Of a stretch of 64,000 nt of DNA, positions 53,866 through 61,384 are shown one piece after another (the first letter of the stretch is position 1; each line of letters opens with the position of its first letter). The notes below the pieces were generated by a model, which had not been told where the DNA came from, did no database searches, and saw only the letters and a list, made by a program, of their open reading frames with translations. The DNA comes from Myxococcota bacterium (GTDB lineage Bacteria > Myxococcota_A > UBA9160 > JAFDDA01), in assembly GCA_965228475.1 (NCBI GenBank), contig OZ245817.1, forward strand, positions 2,720,001 to 2,784,000. The letters run 5' to 3'. A program made the position numbers and the translations under genes.

Positions 53866-54195
53866 CTAGGCCGCTTCGAAGAAGCGGCGCAGGAGCGCGG
53901 TCAGCTCCTCGTCGGTCCCGTAGACCTCTTCGACGCGCTCGCTGTGGACCAGGGCGTTCACCGTCCGTTTGAGGAGCTTCTTCAGGGAGTTCGCCTCGAT
54001 GGCGGCGGCGGTGAGCTCGGCCACCAGGGCGGCGATGTTGCCGTCCTCGACCTCGATGATCTCCTTGGCCCGAAGCGCCTGGACCGCCTCGTCGAGGGCC
54101 GCGGAGACCGTCTTCTCGAACTCCGTCGGCTCCTGGGGCTCCTCCTCCGGCAGCCCCAGCAGGGCCTTCAGCGGGAACTCGGAATCTTCGCTCAA
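53866..54195 (-). CDS. Small acidic hypothetical protein
   Basis: Helical, protein-like sequence from TTG 54195; G-rich SD. Confidence 0.65.
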   Translation of the reverse strand: MSEDSEFPLKALLGLPEEEPQEPTEFEKTVSAALDEAVQALRAKEIIEVEDGNIAALVAELTAAAIEANSLKKLLKRTVNALVHSERVEEVYGTDEELTALLRRFFEAA

Positions 54196-54265
54196 CGGAT
54201 CACCCCCTCGGCCACCACAGTAGGTGCATCCCGCCCCTGGAGCCAGCTTTCCCCGGCGAAGCGCT

Positions 54266-54880
54266 TCAGTGGGCCGCCGGCGCGGGCTCGAGCATCGACT
54301 CGAGGAACGCCCGGGTCTCGGCCGCGTCCCAGGGCACGGGGCCGCCGCCGTAGGCGACGATCCGCCCGGCGGCGTCGGCCACGAAGGCCGCCGGAATCCC
54401 GGTGATGCCGAGCGCCTGGAAGTTCGCCTTCTGCGAATCGAGGTACGGGCGGAGGTGGTGGAGCCCTCGGCCCGCGAGGTAGCGAGCCGGCACCTCGATG
54501 CCGCCGTCGTCGATCGAGAGCGCGACGACGGGCATGCGGCCCGCGAAGGCCGCCGCGAGACGGTCGAGCTTCGGCATCTCCTTCGCGCAGACGCCGCACC
54601 AGGTCGCCCAGAGCACGACCAGGACCGGCCGCCCCTGGAACTCGACGAGCCCCCGCTCGAGCACCGTCCCGTCGTCCTGGAGCTCTTCGAGGACGTAGCT
54701 CGGCAGCTCGGCGCCGGGCGGCACCGCGCGCAGCGGTTTCGGGGCGCGCGCGGAACCGGCGAAGCTCGCCGCGGCGAGGAAGCCGCCCACCACGACGAGG
54801 AGCGTGGCACTGCGGCGCCAGGGGAAGCGCTGGCGCGTGGGCGGGGGATCCGGCCTGGCGGTCGAGTGAGCGGAAGTCAT
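54266..54880 (-). CDS. TlpA/ResA-family thiol-disulfide oxidoreductase
   Basis: N-terminal anchor; WATWCGVC..EMP and GIP motifs. Confidence 0.9.
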   Translation of the reverse strand: MTSAHSTARPDPPPTRQRFPWRRSATLLVVVGGFLAAASFAGSARAPKPLRAVPPGAELPSYVLEELQDDGTVLERGLVEFQGRPVLVVLWATWCGVCAKEMPKLDRLAAAFAGRMPVVALSIDDGGIEVPARYLAGRGLHHLRPYLDSQKANFQALGITGIPAAFVADAAGRIVAYGGGPVPWDAAETRAFLESMLEPAPAAH

Positions 54881-54935
54881 GGACCGCCAGAGCCTACTGA
54901 AACCCTGCGCGCGGATCGAAAGCGGGCGGAGCGGG

Positions 54936-55745
54936 TCAGCCCCGGCCCGCGCCCTTCCCGCCGAGGGCCCCCTCGACGAAGGCGTGGCTCGTCAGCGCTT
55001 CGGCGAAGAACCCGTGGCTCCCGGCGTCGAGCAGCTCGCGCCCGGCGGCGACGACCGCCGCCTGGGCCGCCTTCGCGATCGCGCCGCCCGTGGAGATCCG
55101 CGTCACCCCGGCTTCGAAGAGCTCCGCGATCGACGGCCCGCCCGGCAGGATCAGGCCGTTCAACGGGAGGTCCACGGCGGCTCGGACGGAACGGAAGTCG
55201 TCGAGGCTCCGCAGCCCGGGCGCGTAGAGGACGTCGGCGCCCGCCTCCTGGTAGGCCTCGAGGCGCGCGATCGTGTCGGCCAGGTCCGGGTTGCCGCGGA
55301 TGTGGTTCTCGGCGCGCGCCGTCAGCACGAGCGGCGCGGCGTGCGCACGGTTCACCTCGACCGCCGCCCGGATGTGCTCGGCGGCGCGCTCGGGCTCGTA
55401 GAGTTCGCTGCCGCTCCAGTCTTCGATCGAGCATCCGGCGAGCCCGGTCTCGAGCGCGGCGCGGAGGGTCTCCGCCGCATCCTTGGCCTCGTCCCCGAAG
55501 CCGTGCTCGAGGTCCGCACTCACCGGGAGCGGCGTCGCGCCGACGATCTCCTCGGCGTGGCCGAGCGCCTCCTCCCGTGTCATGTCTCCGTCGAGCCGCC
55601 CGAGCGCGTTGGCGTAGCCGGAGCTCGTCGTCGCGAGCGCCGGGAAGCCGAGCGCGGCCAGGATCTTCGCGGAGCCGCGATCCCAGGGGTTCGGCATGAT
55701 GAAGGGGGCTTCGTGAAGGGCGCGGAAGACGTCTCGGGATTCCAT
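54936..55745 (-). CDS. Isocitrate lyase/PEP-mutase superfamily protein
   Basis: PNPWD, ATTSSG, SADLEHGFG, SIED, ARAE and AGADVLYAPG motifs. Confidence 0.9.
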   Translation of the reverse strand: MESRDVFRALHEAPFIMPNPWDRGSAKILAALGFPALATTSSGYANALGRLDGDMTREEALGHAEEIVGATPLPVSADLEHGFGDEAKDAAETLRAALETGLAGCSIEDWSGSELYEPERAAEHIRAAVEVNRAHAAPLVLTARAENHIRGNPDLADTIARLEAYQEAGADVLYAPGLRSLDDFRSVRAAVDLPLNGLILPGGPSIAELFEAGVTRISTGGAIAKAAQAAVVAAGRELLDAGSHGFFAEALTSHAFVEGALGGKGAGRG

Positions 55746-55867
55746 GGCGGGCTCTCCGGGGCACGGTGTGGGAACGGAGCGGAGAGTCGCGCAGAATCGA
55801 TCGCGCGACTGGCTCCAATCGGACGTGGATCTCGCGGGCCAATCGTGGAGCCGTCGGCTCGCGGCGG

Positions 55868-56551
55868 CTACATGACCTCGTGCTTGCGAAAGGCGTCGAC
55901 CACGCTGCCGCCCGCCTCGATCTCCTCGCGCACCTTCTCCTCCCGGCGCGCCTTCGCGAGCGCGCGCTGGAGGATCTCCTCCTCCGCCTCGTGGGGAATG
56001 ATGCAGACGCCGTCGTCGTCGCCGAAGACGAGGTCGCCGGGCCGCACGCGCACGCCCCCCACCCGGATCGAGCAGCGGAAGTCGACCACGTTGTGGCGGC
56101 CCTGGAGGCCGTAGGCGTAGGCGCCCCGCGCGAAGACCGGGATGTCGACGGCCCGGATGCCGCGGACGTCGCGGACGTTGGCGTTCAGCACGATCCCCGC
56201 CGCGCCGCGCTTCGCGATGCGCAGGGTCAGCATGTCGCCGAGGCGCGCCGCGTAGGTCGGGCAACCCGTCGCGATGTAGACCTCCCCCGGCGCGAGGTCC
56301 TCGATCGACTCGAACATCAGTCCGAAGGGCTTGGCATCGAAGCGGCCGGGGGCGCCGTGGGGCAAGGGCGGATCGTCCTGCACGGGCATGGCGCGGCCGA
56401 TCATCACACGGCCGCCGGTGAGGGTTCCGATCTCGTGGGGCAGCATCGGCTTGCGGAAGCCGAGCTGTTCCATGACGTCGCTCACCGGGCAGGTCGAGAG
56501 CTCGGCCCGCATGAGCGCGAAGAGCTCCTCGTCCGTCTTCGGGTGGGTCAC
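55868..56551 (-). CDS. RraA/HMG-aldolase family protein
   Basis: SDVM, GRAMP, LGDML, VRD and V.PGDLVFGDDDGV motifs. Confidence 0.88.
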   Translation of the reverse strand: MTHPKTDEELFALMRAELSTCPVSDVMEQLGFRKPMLPHEIGTLTGGRVMIGRAMPVQDDPPLPHGAPGRFDAKPFGLMFESIEDLAPGEVYIATGCPTYAARLGDMLTLRIAKRGAAGIVLNANVRDVRGIRAVDIPVFARGAYAYGLQGRHNVVDFRCSIRVGGVRVRPGDLVFGDDDGVCIIPHEAEEEILQRALAKARREEKVREEIEAGGSVVDAFRKHEVM

Positions 56552-56554
56552 GCG

Positions 56555-57424
56555 CTAGGCCGCCGGCGTCATGCGCAGCGGCTTGCGCACGCGGTTGTGG
56601 CCGTGGCGATCCTCGCCGGCCACGAGCACCGAGGCGTAGCGGTCGAGATCGAGCTCCTCGCCGAAGTGCTGAAAGGAATCCCGCCCGGGATACACCTGCA
56701 CCTCCGCGGGCACGAAGCGCGTCGCCCAGCCGAAGCGGACCGAGGACTTGCTCGTGTTCGGATGGGAGCCGTGCAGGCAGCGCGACGTGAAGACGAAGAA
56801 CTGCCCGGCCTTCACCTCCATGTGGACCGTGCCGTCCTCGTCCGCCTCCCAGTTCGGATCGAGCTTCAGGCGGTCCCAGTCGTAGCCGTAGAAGCCGACG
56901 CCGGCGTCGGGCTCGAAGGGGATGTTGCGCTTCTCGTCGAAGTACCACGTGCGGTGCGTGCCGGGCTTCAGTTTGAAGCAGCCGTTCTCGCGCGTGGCGT
57001 CCGTCATCGCGATCCAGGCCGTGAGTTCCCAGGGCTCCGCGCGCCCGGGGGGCGGCACGAGCTTCTCGGTGCCCTCGAACTCGACGAAGCTCTGGGCCTG
57101 GTGCCAGTCCGTGCCGGCGTTGCCCGGGTACTTCGGGAACCACTCGGTGCGCCAGCACAGGACGTCGGGGCCGAGGATGCTCGTCAGCCGGTCCACCAGG
57201 CGCGGGTGGCTGATCATCTCGTCGAGGGCCGGGACGTCGAGATGACGGTCGTAGTTCAGCCGGCTCTTCGGGAACGGCGCGTCGTCCTTGCGCAGAAGGT
57301 CGACCCGGAGCCGGGACCAGATCCGCTTCATCTCCTCCGGCTCGTAGAGGGTGAAGGGGCCGGCGAAGCCGTTCGCGTGGAAGGCCTCCTTCTCGGCGTC
57401 GGAAAGGTGGAATCGCTCACTCAT
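56555..57424 (-). CDS. SyrB2/BarB-type carrier-protein-dependent Fe(II)/2OG halogenase
   Basis: NYDRHLD, CWRTEWFPKYPG and GTDWHQA (HxA replaces HxD/E); KAGQF and LHGS motifs; collinear with SyrB2 as I recall it. Confidence 0.92.
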   Translation of the reverse strand: MSERFHLSDAEKEAFHANGFAGPFTLYEPEEMKRIWSRLRVDLLRKDDAPFPKSRLNYDRHLDVPALDEMISHPRLVDRLTSILGPDVLCWRTEWFPKYPGNAGTDWHQAQSFVEFEGTEKLVPPPGRAEPWELTAWIAMTDATRENGCFKLKPGTHRTWYFDEKRNIPFEPDAGVGFYGYDWDRLKLDPNWEADEDGTVHMEVKAGQFFVFTSRCLHGSHPNTSKSSVRFGWATRFVPAEVQVYPGRDSFQHFGEELDLDRYASVLVAGEDRHGHNRVRKPLRMTPAA

Positions 57425-59243
57425 GGGAGGCTCCCGTTTCGCCCTGCTGATCGAGGATCGCCCGCGCGATCCCCTCGGCCGACGAGGTTTCTTCTTCGAA
57501 GAAGAGCCGCGGGTCGAGTACGACGCCGGCCTCCGCTTCCAACTGTTCGAGCACCTCGACGAGGTTCAGCGAGTTGCCGCCGACGTCGAGAAAGAGCCCC
57601 TCCGGGCCGATCCCCTCGACCCCGATCACCCGCTGGTAGATCCCGAGGACCGTCGCCGTCGTCCGGCGGAGCTCGGCCTCGGCGGCTTCGTCGCCGCCCC
57701 CGACGCGGCCCTCGAGGATCACGGTGAGGAGCTTGCGGTCCGTCTTGCCCGAAGAGAGCTGGGGGAACTCCCCGAGGATCTCGATGTGGCGGGGGATCAT
57801 GTAGGCCGGCAGCTCCTCGGCGAGCCGCTGCGCGATCCGTTCGCGCGGGACCTGGTGCCCCGGGTCGAGCAGGACGCCCGCCGCGAGGATCTTGCCTTCG
57901 TAGGCGGACTCGAGCGCCACGACCTCGGCCGCATGGACGTGGGGAACGCTGCAGATCACGCGCTGGATCTCGTTCGTGTGAACCCGGTAGCCGCCGAGGT
58001 TGACCTCGGCGTCGCGCCGTCCCTGGTAGAGCAGGCTCCCGTCCTCGAGCCAGGTGCAGACGTCTCCGGTGCGGTAGCAGCGCACGCCCTCGAACTCGAC
58101 GAGACGTGCGGCGGTCTCCTCGGGGAGCTTCCAGTAGCCGTCCATGACCTGGCTCCCGGCGAGCAGCAGCTCGCCCGGACGGCCCGCGGTCTCGATGCGC
58201 TGCCCCTCGTCATCCACGAGGAAGGCCTCGACGTGGCGGAAGGGCTTCCCGATCGGATAGAGCGCCTCGCGCCCCGGCTCGCGCTCGCGGATCGGGTGGG
58301 CGGTGGCGGCGCAGGTCACCTCGGTCGGACCGTAGGCGTTCAGCACGGTCACGTGCTCGTTCTTGGCGAGCCAGCGCTGCACGGTCTTGACGTCGGGAAC
58401 GTCGGTCCCGGTGAGGATCGTCCGGAGATGCGGGAGGGGCGCGGAATCGAAGACCCGGGCCTGGGCGACGAGCCCGAGCATCCGGCCCCAGGCCGAGAAA
58501 TGGGTCACGTCGTTCGCGCGGATCGTCTCGAACAGGAGGTCCGGGAAGACGACGTCGTCGTGGAGGTGGACCGTCGCGCCCTCCGAGAGAGGGAAGAGCA
58601 TGTCCATGAGGAACACGTCGAAGTGGAGCGGCGAGAAGCTCGCGCAGACGGCGCCCTCGCGGACGTCGTAGAACTCGCGCGTTCCCTCGAAGAAGTCGGG
58701 GAGACTGCCGTGGCGGATCACGACGCCCTTGGGCCGGCCCGTCGACCCGGAGGTGTAGATGCAGTAGGCCGGCGCCGCCGGATCGAAGGAGCCGTCGTCG
58801 GCCGGGCGCCCTGCGGAGGCCGGCGCCTCCTGCGCCCGCTCGAGCACCGCCGCGAGGTCTGCCTCGGCCAGGATCGGCGCCTCCGCGGGGAGCGCCTCGG
58901 CCACGCGCTCCCGCAGGCTCTCCTCGGTCACGACCACCGCGGGGGCGATCTCCTCGAGGATGTAGGCGAGGCGGGCCTCCGGCATGCGCGGGTCGAGGGG
59001 CACGTGGACCGCCCCGGCTTCGAAGGTGCCCAGGATCGCCGCCACGGTGACCGCCCGCCGGTTCGAGAGCAGGACGACCCGGTCGCCGTGCCGGCAGCCG
59101 AGCGCGAGGAGCCGTTCGGCGAAGGCGGCACTGAAGCGGTCGAGCGTGGCGTAGTCGATGCGGACGTTTCCGTCCGCGAGGGCACAGCGTTCGGGATGCG
59201 CCTCGGCCGTACTCTGGATCGACTGCAGCAGGGGGGTCCGCAT
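57417..59243 (-). CDS. Stand-alone NRPS adenylation-thiolation didomain (SyrB1-like architecture)
   Basis: YTSGSTGRPKG (A3), FD (A4), NAYGPTE (A5), YRTGD (A7), LPAYMIP (A9), SGKTDR (A10); PCP motif FLDVGGNSL. Confidence 0.92.
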   Translation of the reverse strand: MRTPLLQSIQSTAEAHPERCALADGNVRIDYATLDRFSAAFAERLLALGCRHGDRVVLLSNRRAVTVAAILGTFEAGAVHVPLDPRMPEARLAYILEEIAPAVVVTEESLRERVAEALPAEAPILAEADLAAVLERAQEAPASAGRPADDGSFDPAAPAYCIYTSGSTGRPKGVVIRHGSLPDFFEGTREFYDVREGAVCASFSPLHFDVFLMDMLFPLSEGATVHLHDDVVFPDLLFETIRANDVTHFSAWGRMLGLVAQARVFDSAPLPHLRTILTGTDVPDVKTVQRWLAKNEHVTVLNAYGPTEVTCAATAHPIREREPGREALYPIGKPFRHVEAFLVDDEGQRIETAGRPGELLLAGSQVMDGYWKLPEETAARLVEFEGVRCYRTGDVCTWLEDGSLLYQGRRDAEVNLGGYRVHTNEIQRVICSVPHVHAAEVVALESAYEGKILAAGVLLDPGHQVPRERIAQRLAEELPAYMIPRHIEILGEFPQLSSGKTDRKLLTVILEGRVGGGDEAAEAELRRTTATVLGIYQRVIGVEGIGPEGLFLDVGGNSLNLVEVLEQLEAEAGVVLDPRLFFEEETSSAEGIARAILDQQGETGASHE

Positions 59244-59273
59244 CGGCTCGTGCCCTCGTCGTGGCGTCGGCCC

Positions 59274-59303
59274 AAAGTACCACCGGCGTCGGGCGCGCGG
59301 CAA
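59274..59303 (-). promoter_or_regulatory. Putative sigma70 promoter of the halogenase operon: TTGCCG-18 nt-TACTTT with extended TGG
   Basis: Read on the minus strand, about 30 nt upstream of ATG 59243. Confidence 0.5.
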
Positions 59304-59442
59304 TCGCGACGCCGCGTGACGGCCCTGCGCGAGGCCCGCAACTCGGACGCAGAAAACACCGCCCGGACTCCCGTTCCCGGGCCGCGGCGCAGGGGCGCGC
59401 TAGCCTCGCGCCCGCGACGCCATCCATGGAGGCTGCGCCCAC

Positions 59443-59907
59443 GTGGAACGCCCGATCACGGGATTCGACCTCGACGAAGCGGGTCACTGGCGCGCCCAGC
59501 TCTCGTGCGGCCACCGCCAGCACGTCCGTCACCACCCGCCGTTCTCCGACCGCGGCTGGGTGCTGACCGAGGCCGGGCGCGGGTCGCGCCTCGCGACGCC
59601 GCTCGATTGCCCGAACTGCGACCGGAGTGAGCTTCCAGAAGAAGCCTCGGCCTACCGGGAGACGAAGCTCTTCACGCCCGAATCCGTTCCGAAGGGGCTC
59701 CTCGCCGAGCACTCGACGAAGGCCGGGGTCTGGGGCCGGATCCACGTCCGGGCGGGCACCGTCGAGTACTTCGTGGCCGGCGAGAACCCCCGCCACGAGA
59801 CCCTCACGCCGGGACGGCCGGGCGTGATCTGCCCGGAGGTCGAGCACCGGGTGGCACCGGGCGCTTCGAGCGAGTTCTTCGTCGAATTCCTGCGCGTCGC
59901 GGAGTAG
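59443..59907 (+). CDS. DUF3565 + TehB N-terminal/DUF1971 cupin fusion
   Basis: LSCGHRQHVRH.PP...CPNCD, then HSTKAGVWG..IHV cupin; GGAGG SD. Confidence 0.8.
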   Translation: MERPITGFDLDEAGHWRAQLSCGHRQHVRHHPPFSDRGWVLTEAGRGSRLATPLDCPNCDRSELPEEASAYRETKLFTPESVPKGLLAEHSTKAGVWGRIHVRAGTVEYFVAGENPRHETLTPGRPGVICPEVEHRVAPGASSEFFVEFLRVAE

Positions 59908-60007
59908 CTCCGCGTCCCGTTTCCGGCCTGGAGCGGCCCCTGGAAGGGCCGACGCGGCCCGGTGTATCCTGATGCGAAGCCGGCACCCTGCCCCACCGGA
60001 GTCCGCC

Positions 60008-61384
60008 ATGCGCCCTGCTTCGTCCCGGTTCCGCCCCTTCCAACGCCGCCACGCCCCGGCCCTCGTCTTCGCCGTGGCTCTCGTCGCGCTCCCGGCGACG
60101 GCGGGGTACGTGATCTTCGGCAGCGGGGGCTTCGGCTCGAAGTGGGACGATCCCGTCCACGGCACGCCGGCCACGGTCACCTGGGGGTTCATGACGCCCG
60201 GGACGACCGTCGACCCGATGCACGACATCGCCGCGGAGGTCATCGGAGGGAGCGACGTCGCCTCCCTGCGCGCGACCTACGACGGAACCTACGGCGCGGG
60301 CGCCTTCGATGCCGCGCTCGGCCGCGCCTTCGCGACCTGGTCGACCCTCGCCGGGATCACCTTCGTCGGCCCGGTGGCGGACGGGGGCGGCGCCGTCGGC
60401 GCGGCGGGCGCGACGACCCCCGACATCCGCGTCGGGGCCTTCGCGCCGGTGCCGGGCTCCGGCTTCTCCTTCGTGGCCGGCGTCGGCTTCGGCCCGCCCG
60501 GCAACGACCTGCTCTTCCCCGACGCCCTGGCCGGCGACATCCTGTTGAACTCCGCGCAGACCTTCATCGAGCCGGTCGGCGCCGAGGGCGACCCGATCGG
60601 CATGCCCGGCAACGATCTCGAGAACCTCTTCCTCCACGAGCTCGGCCACGCGGCCATGGGTCTCGGCCACCCGGCCGAGGGCGTCGGCGACGTCATGTAC
60701 GTCGGCTTCGACTGCTGCGACCTGATCAACCGGGAACCCTCCCACGACGACATCACCGCCGCCCGCAGCGTCTACGGACTCTCGGCGACGCCGGCCTGCA
60801 GCGACGGCTTCGACGACGACGGCGACGGCCTCTACGACCTCGCCGACTCCGGCTGTGCGAGCGCGGCGGACACGAGCGAGCGCGGCCCCGGCCTCGCCTG
60901 CGACGACGGCATCGACGACGACCTCGACACGATCGCGGACTTCCCGAACGATCCGGGCTGCCTCTCCCGCACGGACCCGGACGAGACCGACCCGAACCTT
61001 CCGTGCGACGACGGCATCGACAACGACTCGGACGGCCTCATCGACGCGGGCTTCGACCCCGCCTGCTCGAGCGGGAACCCGGCCGTGCCGGACCCGACCG
61101 TCGGCGTCGAAGCGTCGGCCTGCCAGGACGGCTTCGACAACGACGTCGACGGCAAGAAGGACTTCGACGGCGGCCAATCGATCCACGGCGCCTGCGGGGG
61201 CGGCTCCTGCCCGCCCGGCGTGAGCGACACGGATCTCGACGGCGTCGCCGACCCGGACCCGGAGTGCGTGGACCGGGCCTGGGCGACGAAGGAGAAGGCC
61301 TCCTGCGGCCTCGGCTTCGAGGTCCTCGTGCTGATCTCGCCGTTGCTCTGGCTGCGCGGGCGGCGCCTGCGCCGAGAGCGCTGA
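60008..61384 (+). CDS. Secreted matrixin-like metzincin protease with CxDGxDxDxD repeats and a CGLG-TM-Arg tail
   Basis: HELGHAAMGLGH, Met-turn DVMY, four CxDGxD(D/N)D repeats, C-terminal SCGLGFEV...RGRRLRR. Confidence 0.85.
   Translation: MRPASSRFRPFQRRHAPALVFAVALVALPATAGYVIFGSGGFGSKWDDPVHGTPATVTWGFMTPGTTVDPMHDIAAEVIGGSDVASLRATYDGTYGAGAFDAALGRAFATWSTLAGITFVGPVADGGGAVGAAGATTPDIRVGAFAPVPGSGFSFVAGVGFGPPGNDLLFPDALAGDILLNSAQTFIEPVGAEGDPIGMPGNDLENLFLHELGHAAMGLGHPAEGVGDVMYVGFDCCDLINREPSHDDITAARSVYGLSATPACSDGFDDDGDGLYDLADSGCASAADTSERGPGLACDDGIDDDLDTIADFPNDPGCLSRTDPDETDPNLPCDDGIDNDSDGLIDAGFDPACSSGNPAVPDPTVGVEASACQDGFDNDVDGKKDFDGGQSIHGACGGGSCPPGVSDTDLDGVADPDPECVDRAWATKEKASCGLGFEVLVLISPLLWLRGRRLRRER

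Follow-up and report, generated by a model that had tools for sequence, protein, structure and literature searches.

The window analysed here is a stretch of 64,000 nucleotides of a Myxococcota bacterium (contig OZ245817.1, positions 2,720,001 to 2,784,000) within a single 5.0-Mb contig of ~70% GC. Its minus strand carries three packed genes, coding for a fused adenylation–thiolation (A-T) loader, a carrier-dependent chlorinase that uses Fe(II) and 2-oxoglutarate (2OG), and a protein of the RraA family (Table 1). At a probability of roughly 0.55, this trio may represent the core of a branched-chain amino-acid pathway that is widespread and apparently undescribed, a core acquired horizontally and then reduced; the hallmark of the pathway would be the partnership of the chlorinase with the RraA-like protein. 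An earlier note on this DNA had described the three genes as tightly linked, and the coordinates of the open reading frames (ORFs) agree, since the end of the A-T gene and the start of the chlorinase gene share 8 nt, while 3 nt separate the chlorinase gene from that of RraA. The longest ORF of the A-T gene, 57417-59303(-), begins with a TTG at 59303, whereas the true start is likely the ATG at 59243, which has a GAGGG just upstream. Neither a thioesterase (TE) nor a condensation (C) domain is present in the window, as the note had stated, and all PF00668 and PF00975 matches of the whole genome lie elsewhere. The plausible promoter that it placed in front of the genes did not reappear, in that a sigma-70 scan returned 0 sites in 54000-60200, although such a scan is weak evidence at 70% GC.

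Table 1. Features of the locus (positions counted from the first nucleotide of the window).
Feature	Position	Strand	Remarks
A-T loader (fused adenylation–thiolation), 608 aa	57417..59243	(-)	ATG start preferred
Carrier-dependent Fe(II)/2-oxoglutarate aliphatic chlorinase, SyrB2/CytC3/BarB type, PhyH fold, 289 aa	56555..57424	(-)	
RraA / HMG-CHA-aldolase-like protein, 227 aa	55868..56551	(-)	GTG start
PEP-mutase/isocitrate-lyase-superfamily gene	54936..55745	(-)	PF13714, 3.7e-69
Leader / divergent intergenic region 5′ of the A-T gene	59244..59442	(-)	

The chlorinase is the sole gene in the genome of the type described by the NCBIfam model TIGR01762 (“chlorinating enzyme”), whose cut-off it clearly exceeds (399.7 bits versus 226.3), and it is also matched by PhyH in Pfam (1.5e-31). 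The nearest solved structures are SyrB2 (PDB 2FCT, 1.9e-76) and CytC3 (1e-73). Its H-Q-A aligns on the H-x-A of SyrB2, which bears out the halide-binding signature that had been read from the letters alone; the distal His and an Arg-containing RxxxxxR stretch are likewise kept, and we take these residues to provide the iron site and the 2OG-binding Arg. The cognate loader with its carrier adjoins the gene, and an Sfp-type phosphopantetheinyl transferase (PPTase) is encoded elsewhere in the genome. The window enzyme would probably chlorinate a tethered substrate. The protein is 61-63% identical to the two chlorinases of the barbamide locus and has some peculiarities, i.e., it lacks a 10-residue loop (residues ~172-176) that is found in nine aligned relatives (5 residues shorter in two of them), in SyrB2 and in CytC3, and it has N-A where the others have D-E, just ahead of the iron-binding His. 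The same deletion and one of the two N-A substitutions are present in its nearest relative (P0217, 83% identical, 289 aa), and the short-loop form thus appears to exist as a small lineage of its own that has been kept across lineages.

The A-T protein was matched by AMP-binding (1.5e-78), AMP-binding_C and PP-binding in Pfam and lies over the cut-off of the NCBIfam adenylation model TIGR01733 (348 bits versus 317.4). Its carrier serine motif, GGNSL, is the same as in the free-standing carriers of its relatives, and the fusion of A and T is unique to the window, with PP-binding in none of 95 other homologues (E <= 1e-100). The protein is 56-66% identical to the stand-alone A proteins of RraA-linked clusters (best 66%). 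Its A domain shares 48% of its residues with the barbamide-locus A protein and deviates at 5 of 165 family-invariant columns. The Asp and Lys expected for binding the alpha-amino and carboxyl groups of an alpha-amino acid are retained. Ten pocket positions were placed via motif anchors, following a mapping that we assume to carry over from GrsA-PheA, and the residues at these positions are the same in nine of the ten RraA-linked A proteins compared (the window counted), the remaining member being off at one position; three Burkholderia A proteins have the same pocket anchor residues by eye. Four positions differ from the A protein of the barbamide locus of Moorena producens (L012), with the bulkier residue on the window side each time, which points to a related, somewhat smaller aliphatic substrate. 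The substrate would be an amino acid of the Val/Leu/Ile type, and valine is slightly favoured over leucine or isoleucine on account of the pocket residues and of the IlvE/LeuA/PanE-type paralogues in the related clusters described below.

The third protein clearly belongs to PF03737 (1e-29, 104.2 bits versus a cut-off of 24.5) and differs from the RNase E regulator RraA both in length (227 aa versus about 160 aa) and in its scores, which stay under the regulator cut-offs (44.1 versus 136 for PRK09372, 22.2 versus 241 for TIGR02998). It is a family member at the Pfam level only, with scores under the cut-off of every equivalog, and may have an aldolase-like function. The profile of its subfamily matches PDB 5x15, 5ir2, 3k4i and the HMG/CHA aldolase 3noj (4.6e-17), and the G-D and R-D motifs that align with 3NOJ, presumably for binding of the metal and of a 2-oxo acid, are invariant in the subfamily. 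In addition, the subfamily has an extra conserved N-terminal part of ~75 residues and invariant stretches of its own. The window protein is 64-72% identical to copies that adjoin a chlorinase in other phyla, its nearest relatives being 82% and 78% identical, and with deviations at 0 of 75 family-invariant columns it is the best conserved of the three proteins.

Whether the RraA-like protein is a true partner of the chlorinase was addressed from the halogenase side, which makes the comparison non-circular. A halogenase-first scan of species-representative genomes yielded 33 loci. All nine of the closest non-cyanobacterial ones (chlorinase 61-71% identical) have an RraA protein, 64-71% identical to that of the window, ~0.8 kb downstream, whereas it is present in 0 of the 24 others, i.e., two Moorena barbamide-type loci and 22 more distant ones. 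The nine are labelled Arenibaculum, Breoghania (two), Sulfurifustis, Roseobacter, Rhodobacter, Stellaceae MAG (metagenome-assembled genome), alphaproteobacterial MAG and Burkholderia-labelled MAG. An RraA-first scan of metagenomes added 52 further loci. Among all 60 loci with an RraA protein at least 55% identical, a chlorinase lies within 3.5 kb on the same strand in 38 of the 42 that have at least 1300 bp upstream, although many of the metagenome loci are near-identical soil sequences, so that these counts overstate their independence. In a tree of concatenated A and chlorinase sequences (quick search, midpoint root between the barbamide pair and the rest), all RraA-linked pairs form one clade with an SH-aLRT of 100. 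RraA-linked halogenase groups occur in Alpha-, Beta- and Gammaproteobacteria, in Acidobacteriota-labelled MAGs, in Entotheonella and in this genome, and the named proteins include those of Burkholderia pseudomallei, B. oklahomensis, B. plantarii, B. gladioli and B. glumae. The window trio shares the core of this family, namely a BarD-like A domain with the family pocket, a BarB-like chlorinase and the RraA subtype, all in one orientation. The partnership is strongly conserved across phyla; the earlier note had reasoned that its proposal would fall if RraA were not conserved beside such A-T/halogenase pairs, and the opposite was observed. The scans also brought up a second conserved halogenase cluster (L014-L034, e.g. 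L018, L023) that lacks RraA: a carrier and a chlorinase 52-56% identical to that of the window are accompanied by A-domain genes ~6 kb upstream and ~5 kb downstream, in loci labelled Acidobacteriota, Actinomycetota, Myxococcota and Eremiobacterota.

The related clusters are considerably richer than the window trio. The order in the nine genome loci is A, T, chlorinase, thioesterase, RraA, (transaminase), second thioesterase, HMGL-type synthase and luciferase-like (LLM) monooxygenase, with the class IV transaminase in six of the nine and the synthase and monooxygenase in eight. In one cluster (L009), the transaminase is an IlvE equivalog (388 bits versus 279 in NCBIfam) and the HMGL gene corresponds to the catalytic part of 2-isopropylmalate synthase (608 versus 532; profile positions 3-384 of 516) without its regulatory domain, whereas the LLM gene falls in the NtaA/DmoA family and a neighbouring reductase is a PanE-type 2-dehydropantoate reductase. 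In the soil clade, the genes run transaminase-A-T-chlorinase-RraA-thioesterase-synthase, and behind them come a GNAT gene, a second AMP-ligase and an alpha/beta hydrolase. A Burkholderia form (L107 9796-18967, in the genome G603, and L033 6055-16043) runs A, T, chlorinase, thioesterase, RraA, (IlvE paralogue), thioesterase, DmpF-like and DmpG-like, so that an aldehyde dehydrogenase and a 4-hydroxy-2-oxo-acid aldolase of the DmpF/DmpG type stand in place of the synthase and the monooxygenase; G603 additionally codes for a small cupin and an exporter of the LysE type, and L033 for a PPTase and a 3-hydroxyisobutyrate-dehydrogenase-like protein. At least one thioesterase is found in 30 of the 33 RraA loci with both flanks, and the three exceptions (L067, L068 and L075) also lack a chlorinase; put differently, all 30 other loci with both chlorinase and RraA have one or two BarC-like thioesterases, the BarC-like enzyme of the barbamide locus being 46-49% identical to those of the RraA clusters. 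By their families, the accessory enzymes would all act on branched-chain amino acids or their 2-oxo acids, and none of the related RraA clusters adjoins a nonribosomal peptide synthetase (NRPS) or polyketide synthase (PKS).

One candidate product was considered on the basis of a name, as an A-protein homologue is called “BarD [Burkholderia pseudomallei]”. Bactobolin contains a chlorinated hydroxy-valine, according to two papers (PMC3529544, PMC6963729). The link was rejected because the 92% identical orthologue in G603 belongs to the RraA-type cluster, with no NRPS/PKS in its flanks of ~17 kb and 21 kb. The only chlorinase of G603 is that of this same cluster.

The substrate of the RraA enzyme can be approached from loci in which it occurs without a chlorinase. 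Two RraA proteins (L068 and L075) are near-identical to copies of the soil clade, within which they are nested in the tree, and lie between an amino-acid permease and an IlvE-type transaminase with an FAA-hydrolase and a YbaK-like gene (6537-12216 in L068). This arrangement looks like an uptake and catabolic module for the same kind of amino acid. A sister subfamily, ~47% identical, occurs on a Paracoccus plasmid in an operon with a regulator, a tricarboxylate transporter, an SDR and a cupin. This acid-catabolic operon, the permease and transaminase context and the accessory genes of the clusters together suggest a free acid as the substrate of the RraA enzyme, most probably a 2-oxo acid formed by transamination, and not a thioester bound to the carrier.

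The window copy would be an old horizontal acquisition that was later reduced. Its RraA subtype was found neither among 40 relatives, drawn from its own genus, family or order (E <= 1e-20), nor among 400 genomes sampled from the phylum (E <= 1e-40), and the trio alone is common to the window and the 86 related loci, none of which has a homologue of six neighbouring window genes. The third-position GC content of the trio (GC3, 0.93-0.96) equals that of the host genes, and such host-like codon usage argues for a long residence without decay. Beside the trio, the full accessory set of the relatives (thioesterases, IlvE paralogue, truncated isopropylmalate synthase or DmpFG, NtaA-type monooxygenase) is missing; elsewhere in the genome, tblastn finds homologues of the transaminase (46%) and the synthase (51%), which are probably housekeeping enzymes, and the only PF00975 match over the cut-off is a PKS domain. 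Since the barbamide outgroup and every other chlorinase locus of the ingroup have a thioesterase, its absence here is most simply explained as a loss in the window lineage, a parsimony argument that rests on this outgroup. In a quick tree of RraA proteins, the window lineage is nested with weak support. Remnants of lost genes were sought by permissive tblastn of the 122-nt and 199-nt intergenic regions, which gave only noise.

The pathway proposed from these observations begins with two steps to which the sequences point strongly: the A domain would adenylate an alpha-amino acid and load it onto its own carrier domain, and the SyrB2/BarB-type enzyme would then place chlorine on an unactivated carbon in the side chain of this tethered amino acid. 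The chloro-amino acid would be released by the BarC-like thioesterases in the relatives and by some host hydrolase in the host of the window, and converted to the chloro-2-oxo acid by transamination, for which the relatives presumably use their dedicated IlvE paralogue and this organism its housekeeping IlvE. With a divalent metal, the RraA enzyme could then form the C3 enolate of the free chloro-2-oxo acid, so that the C-Cl bond would serve as a leaving group, either in an intramolecular alkylation that gives a cyclopropyl 2-oxo acid or in an elimination of HCl; the halogenation would in this case be cryptic. Such displacement or elimination of chloride is slightly preferred as the RraA reaction since, of all the accessory genes, RraA has the tightest link to the chlorinase, while aldol or retro-aldol chemistry that retains the chlorine is nearly as likely. 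The boldest version would make the RraA fold a halide-displacing enzyme, in which the C3 enolate of the metal-bound chloro-2-oxo acid expels chloride, the cyclopropyl or unsaturated product is transaminated to a strained or vinyl-type amino-acid antimetabolite, and loader, chlorinase and RraA form the minimal sufficient unit; taken as a whole, this version is doubtful.

The earlier note had assigned a different task to the RraA protein, namely to cleave or off-load the chloro-aminoacyl-S-carrier by retro-aldol or decarboxylase chemistry, so that the trio would be self-sufficient for making a small organochlorine. The model draws on what is missing around the trio, where no thioesterase, SyrC/CmaE-type transferase or condensation domain is found, on the position of the RraA gene 3 nt behind the chlorinase (it follows the chlorinase directly in the soil clade too) and on the unmatched conservation of the window's RraA protein. 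The wider comparison speaks otherwise: all 30 other loci keep a thioesterase, and most also an IlvE-type transaminase, which indicates that the RraA enzyme is not the chain-release catalyst; the same subtype occurs beside a permease and a transaminase with neither carrier nor chlorinase; and retro-aldol cleavage requires a 4-hydroxyl, which the chlorinase does not supply. We are also aware of no enzyme in the RraA family with a thioester substrate. Off-loading by RraA is consequently decidedly unlikely, and a small organochlorine formed by retro-aldol chemistry is conceivable, although nothing specific speaks for it. The RraA enzyme could also act upstream, where together with a branched-chain transaminase it would build a non-proteinogenic amino acid (for instance one that is 4-hydroxylated or otherwise 4-substituted) through aldol addition of pyruvate, to be loaded and chlorinated afterwards. 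An aldolase and a transaminase are combined in this way for monatin and 4-hydroxyisoleucine, RraA adjoins the IlvE paralogue in six of the nine genome loci, one of the four pocket differences from the barbamide A protein is a Ser, and the DmpF/DmpG-like genes of the Burkholderia form could supply an aldehyde. That order of events is nonetheless quite unlikely, as the strict link is that of RraA with the chlorinase and not with the transaminase, which is missing as a clustered gene from the window and from three of the nine genome loci, and as the accessory genes are paralogues of ordinary branched-chain 2-oxo-acid enzymes.

Two further explanations concern the window copy itself. The trio might be a non-productive remnant that releases no product after the loss of its thioesterases, transaminase, synthase and monooxygenase. 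The accessory genes of essentially all relatives are indeed missing, and the chlorinase is the most deviant of the three proteins; yet the three ORFs are intact and have their catalytic motifs, no invariant column of RraA has changed, the codon usage implies long residence, and the short form of the chlorinase recurs in P0217, all of which makes a dead remnant unlikely. Alternatively, the chloro-amino acid could be passed in trans to the only NRPS-PKS of the genome, whose TE would release a chlorinated hybrid. This assembly line (2092052-2103616, L103 4052-15616) consists of C-A-T, with a luciferase-like monooxygenase inserted in the A domain, followed by KS-AT-KR-DH-ACP-TE, and after it come the Sfp-type PPTase and a GDSL-like hydrolase; the genome has four PP-binding matches altogether. 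Trans-loading of halogenated aminoacyl groups is known from syringomycin and coronatine, and the TE domain and PPTase lie together at 2.092-2.104 Mb. The two loci are however ~675 kb apart, there is no SyrC/CmaE-type shuttle near either of them, no related RraA cluster lies beside an NRPS/PKS, and the trio is foreign to the phylum, so that such a route is very improbable. The search for trans-acting partners that the earlier note had advised thus turned up the NRPS-PKS with its TE as well as the PPTase, which can explain the priming of the trio's carrier domain, and brought nothing to light that would link the assembly line to the trio.

Several observations weigh against the preferred reading of the trio as the reduced core of a branched-chain amino-acid pathway. 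We infer the substrate, the product and the enzyme activities of the trio from sequence, and the gene order gives no sign of which of the two, RraA or the chlorinase, acts first. Against the HMG/CHA aldolase equivalogs, the RraA protein stays far short of the cut-offs (75.5 versus 304.5 for TIGR02798, LigK/PcmE, and 83.2 versus 179 for PRK09262), and its description as an “enolate-forming lyase” follows from motifs whose roles we take over from the aldolases. A stand-alone thioesterase is absent from the genome by tblastn with both cluster thioesterases, which leaves the release step unexplained here. Of the 134 chlorinase columns without variation among 35 relatives, 14 are changed in the window protein, in addition to the 10-residue deletion, and these changes could reflect an altered or weakened function. 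In the tree of A and chlorinase, the window sits in an unresolved basal polytomy on a long branch.

The region around the trio was also inspected for additional members and for signals. A gene of the PEP-mutase family, overlooked in the earlier note, is co-directional with the trio and begins 122 nt 3′ of the RraA gene, with no terminator-like site in the gap. Among solved structures it comes closest to an uncharacterised “lyase/mutase” (4lsb, 8.4e-60); homologues are present in 0 of 60 related RraA loci and, at 56-63% identity, in two of four relatives searched, and its membership in the unit of the trio is uncertain. Every cluster variant has a different metal-dependent 2-oxo-acid C-C enzyme at the end that corresponds to the PEP-mutase gene, which may be a coincidence. 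Synteny with the relatives was considered for locating the borders of the island and proved uninformative, as neither of the two relatives with the PEP-mutase homologue has any of its neighbouring genes in common with the window. On the other side, a terminator-like hairpin with a T-run lies at 59382-59361(-), ~120 nt 5′ of the A-T start, at a frequency expected by chance (two terminator-like sites found, 1.9 expected); the leader has no Rfam match and its RNA fold is not more stable than that of shuffled sequences (z = 1.18). Further along, 59972-61384(+) codes for a secreted-looking protein that is weakly matched by matrixin (M10) and contains acidic double-disulfide repeats (NF033662), and many contig joints and repeats fall within 60790-61160. 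Contigs from two sequencing runs hold the trio region unchanged, which is uninformative on expression. In a marine metagenome run (X4), contigs 97-99% identical to 57766-58202 (in the A-T gene) and to 59994-61302 (in the neighbouring gene) point to a close relative of the source organism there, together with an ~86% identical RraA fragment that is more distant.

Carrier-dependent radical halogenases are few, and every one characterised so far brought new chemistry to light, e.g. that of cyclopropanes, alkynes and trichloromethyl groups. The earlier note had spoken of a pathway that it did not recognise, and this impression holds up: the pairing of RraA with the chlorinase is conserved, and a full-text search, with subscription-only papers outside its reach, returned nothing that connects RraA, HMG aldolase or “demethylmenaquinone methyltransferase” to a halogenase, nor any description of such a cluster. 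The available part of PMC10849952 does not mention the RraA-halogenase pairing. A distinct RraA-fold subfamily tied to a carrier-dependent halogenase would open the way to what may be a new use of enzymatic chlorination in the metabolism of amino acids and 2-oxo acids and would assign a function to many proteins that are now annotated only as “RraA family” or “HMG aldolase”, while the reduced trio of the window suggests which genes are the indispensable core.

Among the described systems, the closest named relative of the trio is the barbamide cassette BarA/BarB1/BarB2/BarC/BarD of M. producens (L012), and one of its two chlorinases is named BarB1 by its source (P0313). In barbamide biosynthesis leucine is trichlorinated, and the logic of Fe/2OG chlorination on a carrier-tethered aliphatic amino acid is shared. 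The barbamide cassette, however, has no RraA gene, contains two tandem chlorinases and feeds an NRPS/PKS line, whereas the window has a single chlorinase, a fused A-T protein, no thioesterase and a pocket with four of its ten residues changed. The window's relatives, in their A/T/halogenase/thioesterase form, also match the cassettes of the SyrB1/SyrB2, CytC1-C4 and Thr1-Thr4 type, in which A, T and halogenase, with or without a thioesterase, yield free chloro-amino acids; SyrB1 is likewise an A-T didomain. These pathways lack an RraA-type enzyme, an IlvE paralogue and a truncated isopropylmalate synthase, and the window in turn lacks the transferase or thioesterase that they use. The loader and the chlorinase are of the ordinary SyrB/CytC/Bar class, what is new being the conserved RraA partner and the branched-chain 2-oxo-acid tool-kit, and the window copy is, judged by its sequence, a reduced and somewhat deviant member of the RraA-linked halogenase family. 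With the HMG/CHA aldolase-oxaloacetate decarboxylases (LigK/ProA/GalC; 3NOJ), the RraA protein of the window shares its Pfam family, and the two would be expected to have the chemistry of a metal-bound 2-oxo-acid enolate in common; the context of the window protein is biosynthetic and linked to a halogenase, in contrast to the aromatic catabolism in which LigK/ProA/GalC take part. For cryptic halogenation, a possible functional analogy is provided by CmaA/CmaB/CmaC of coronamic acid, where an enzyme-stabilised carbanion expels the gamma or delta chloride of a branched-chain amino acid that is tethered to its carrier. CmaC has an unrelated fold and works on a thioester, whereas the candidate of the window has the RraA fold and would probably act on a free 2-oxo acid.

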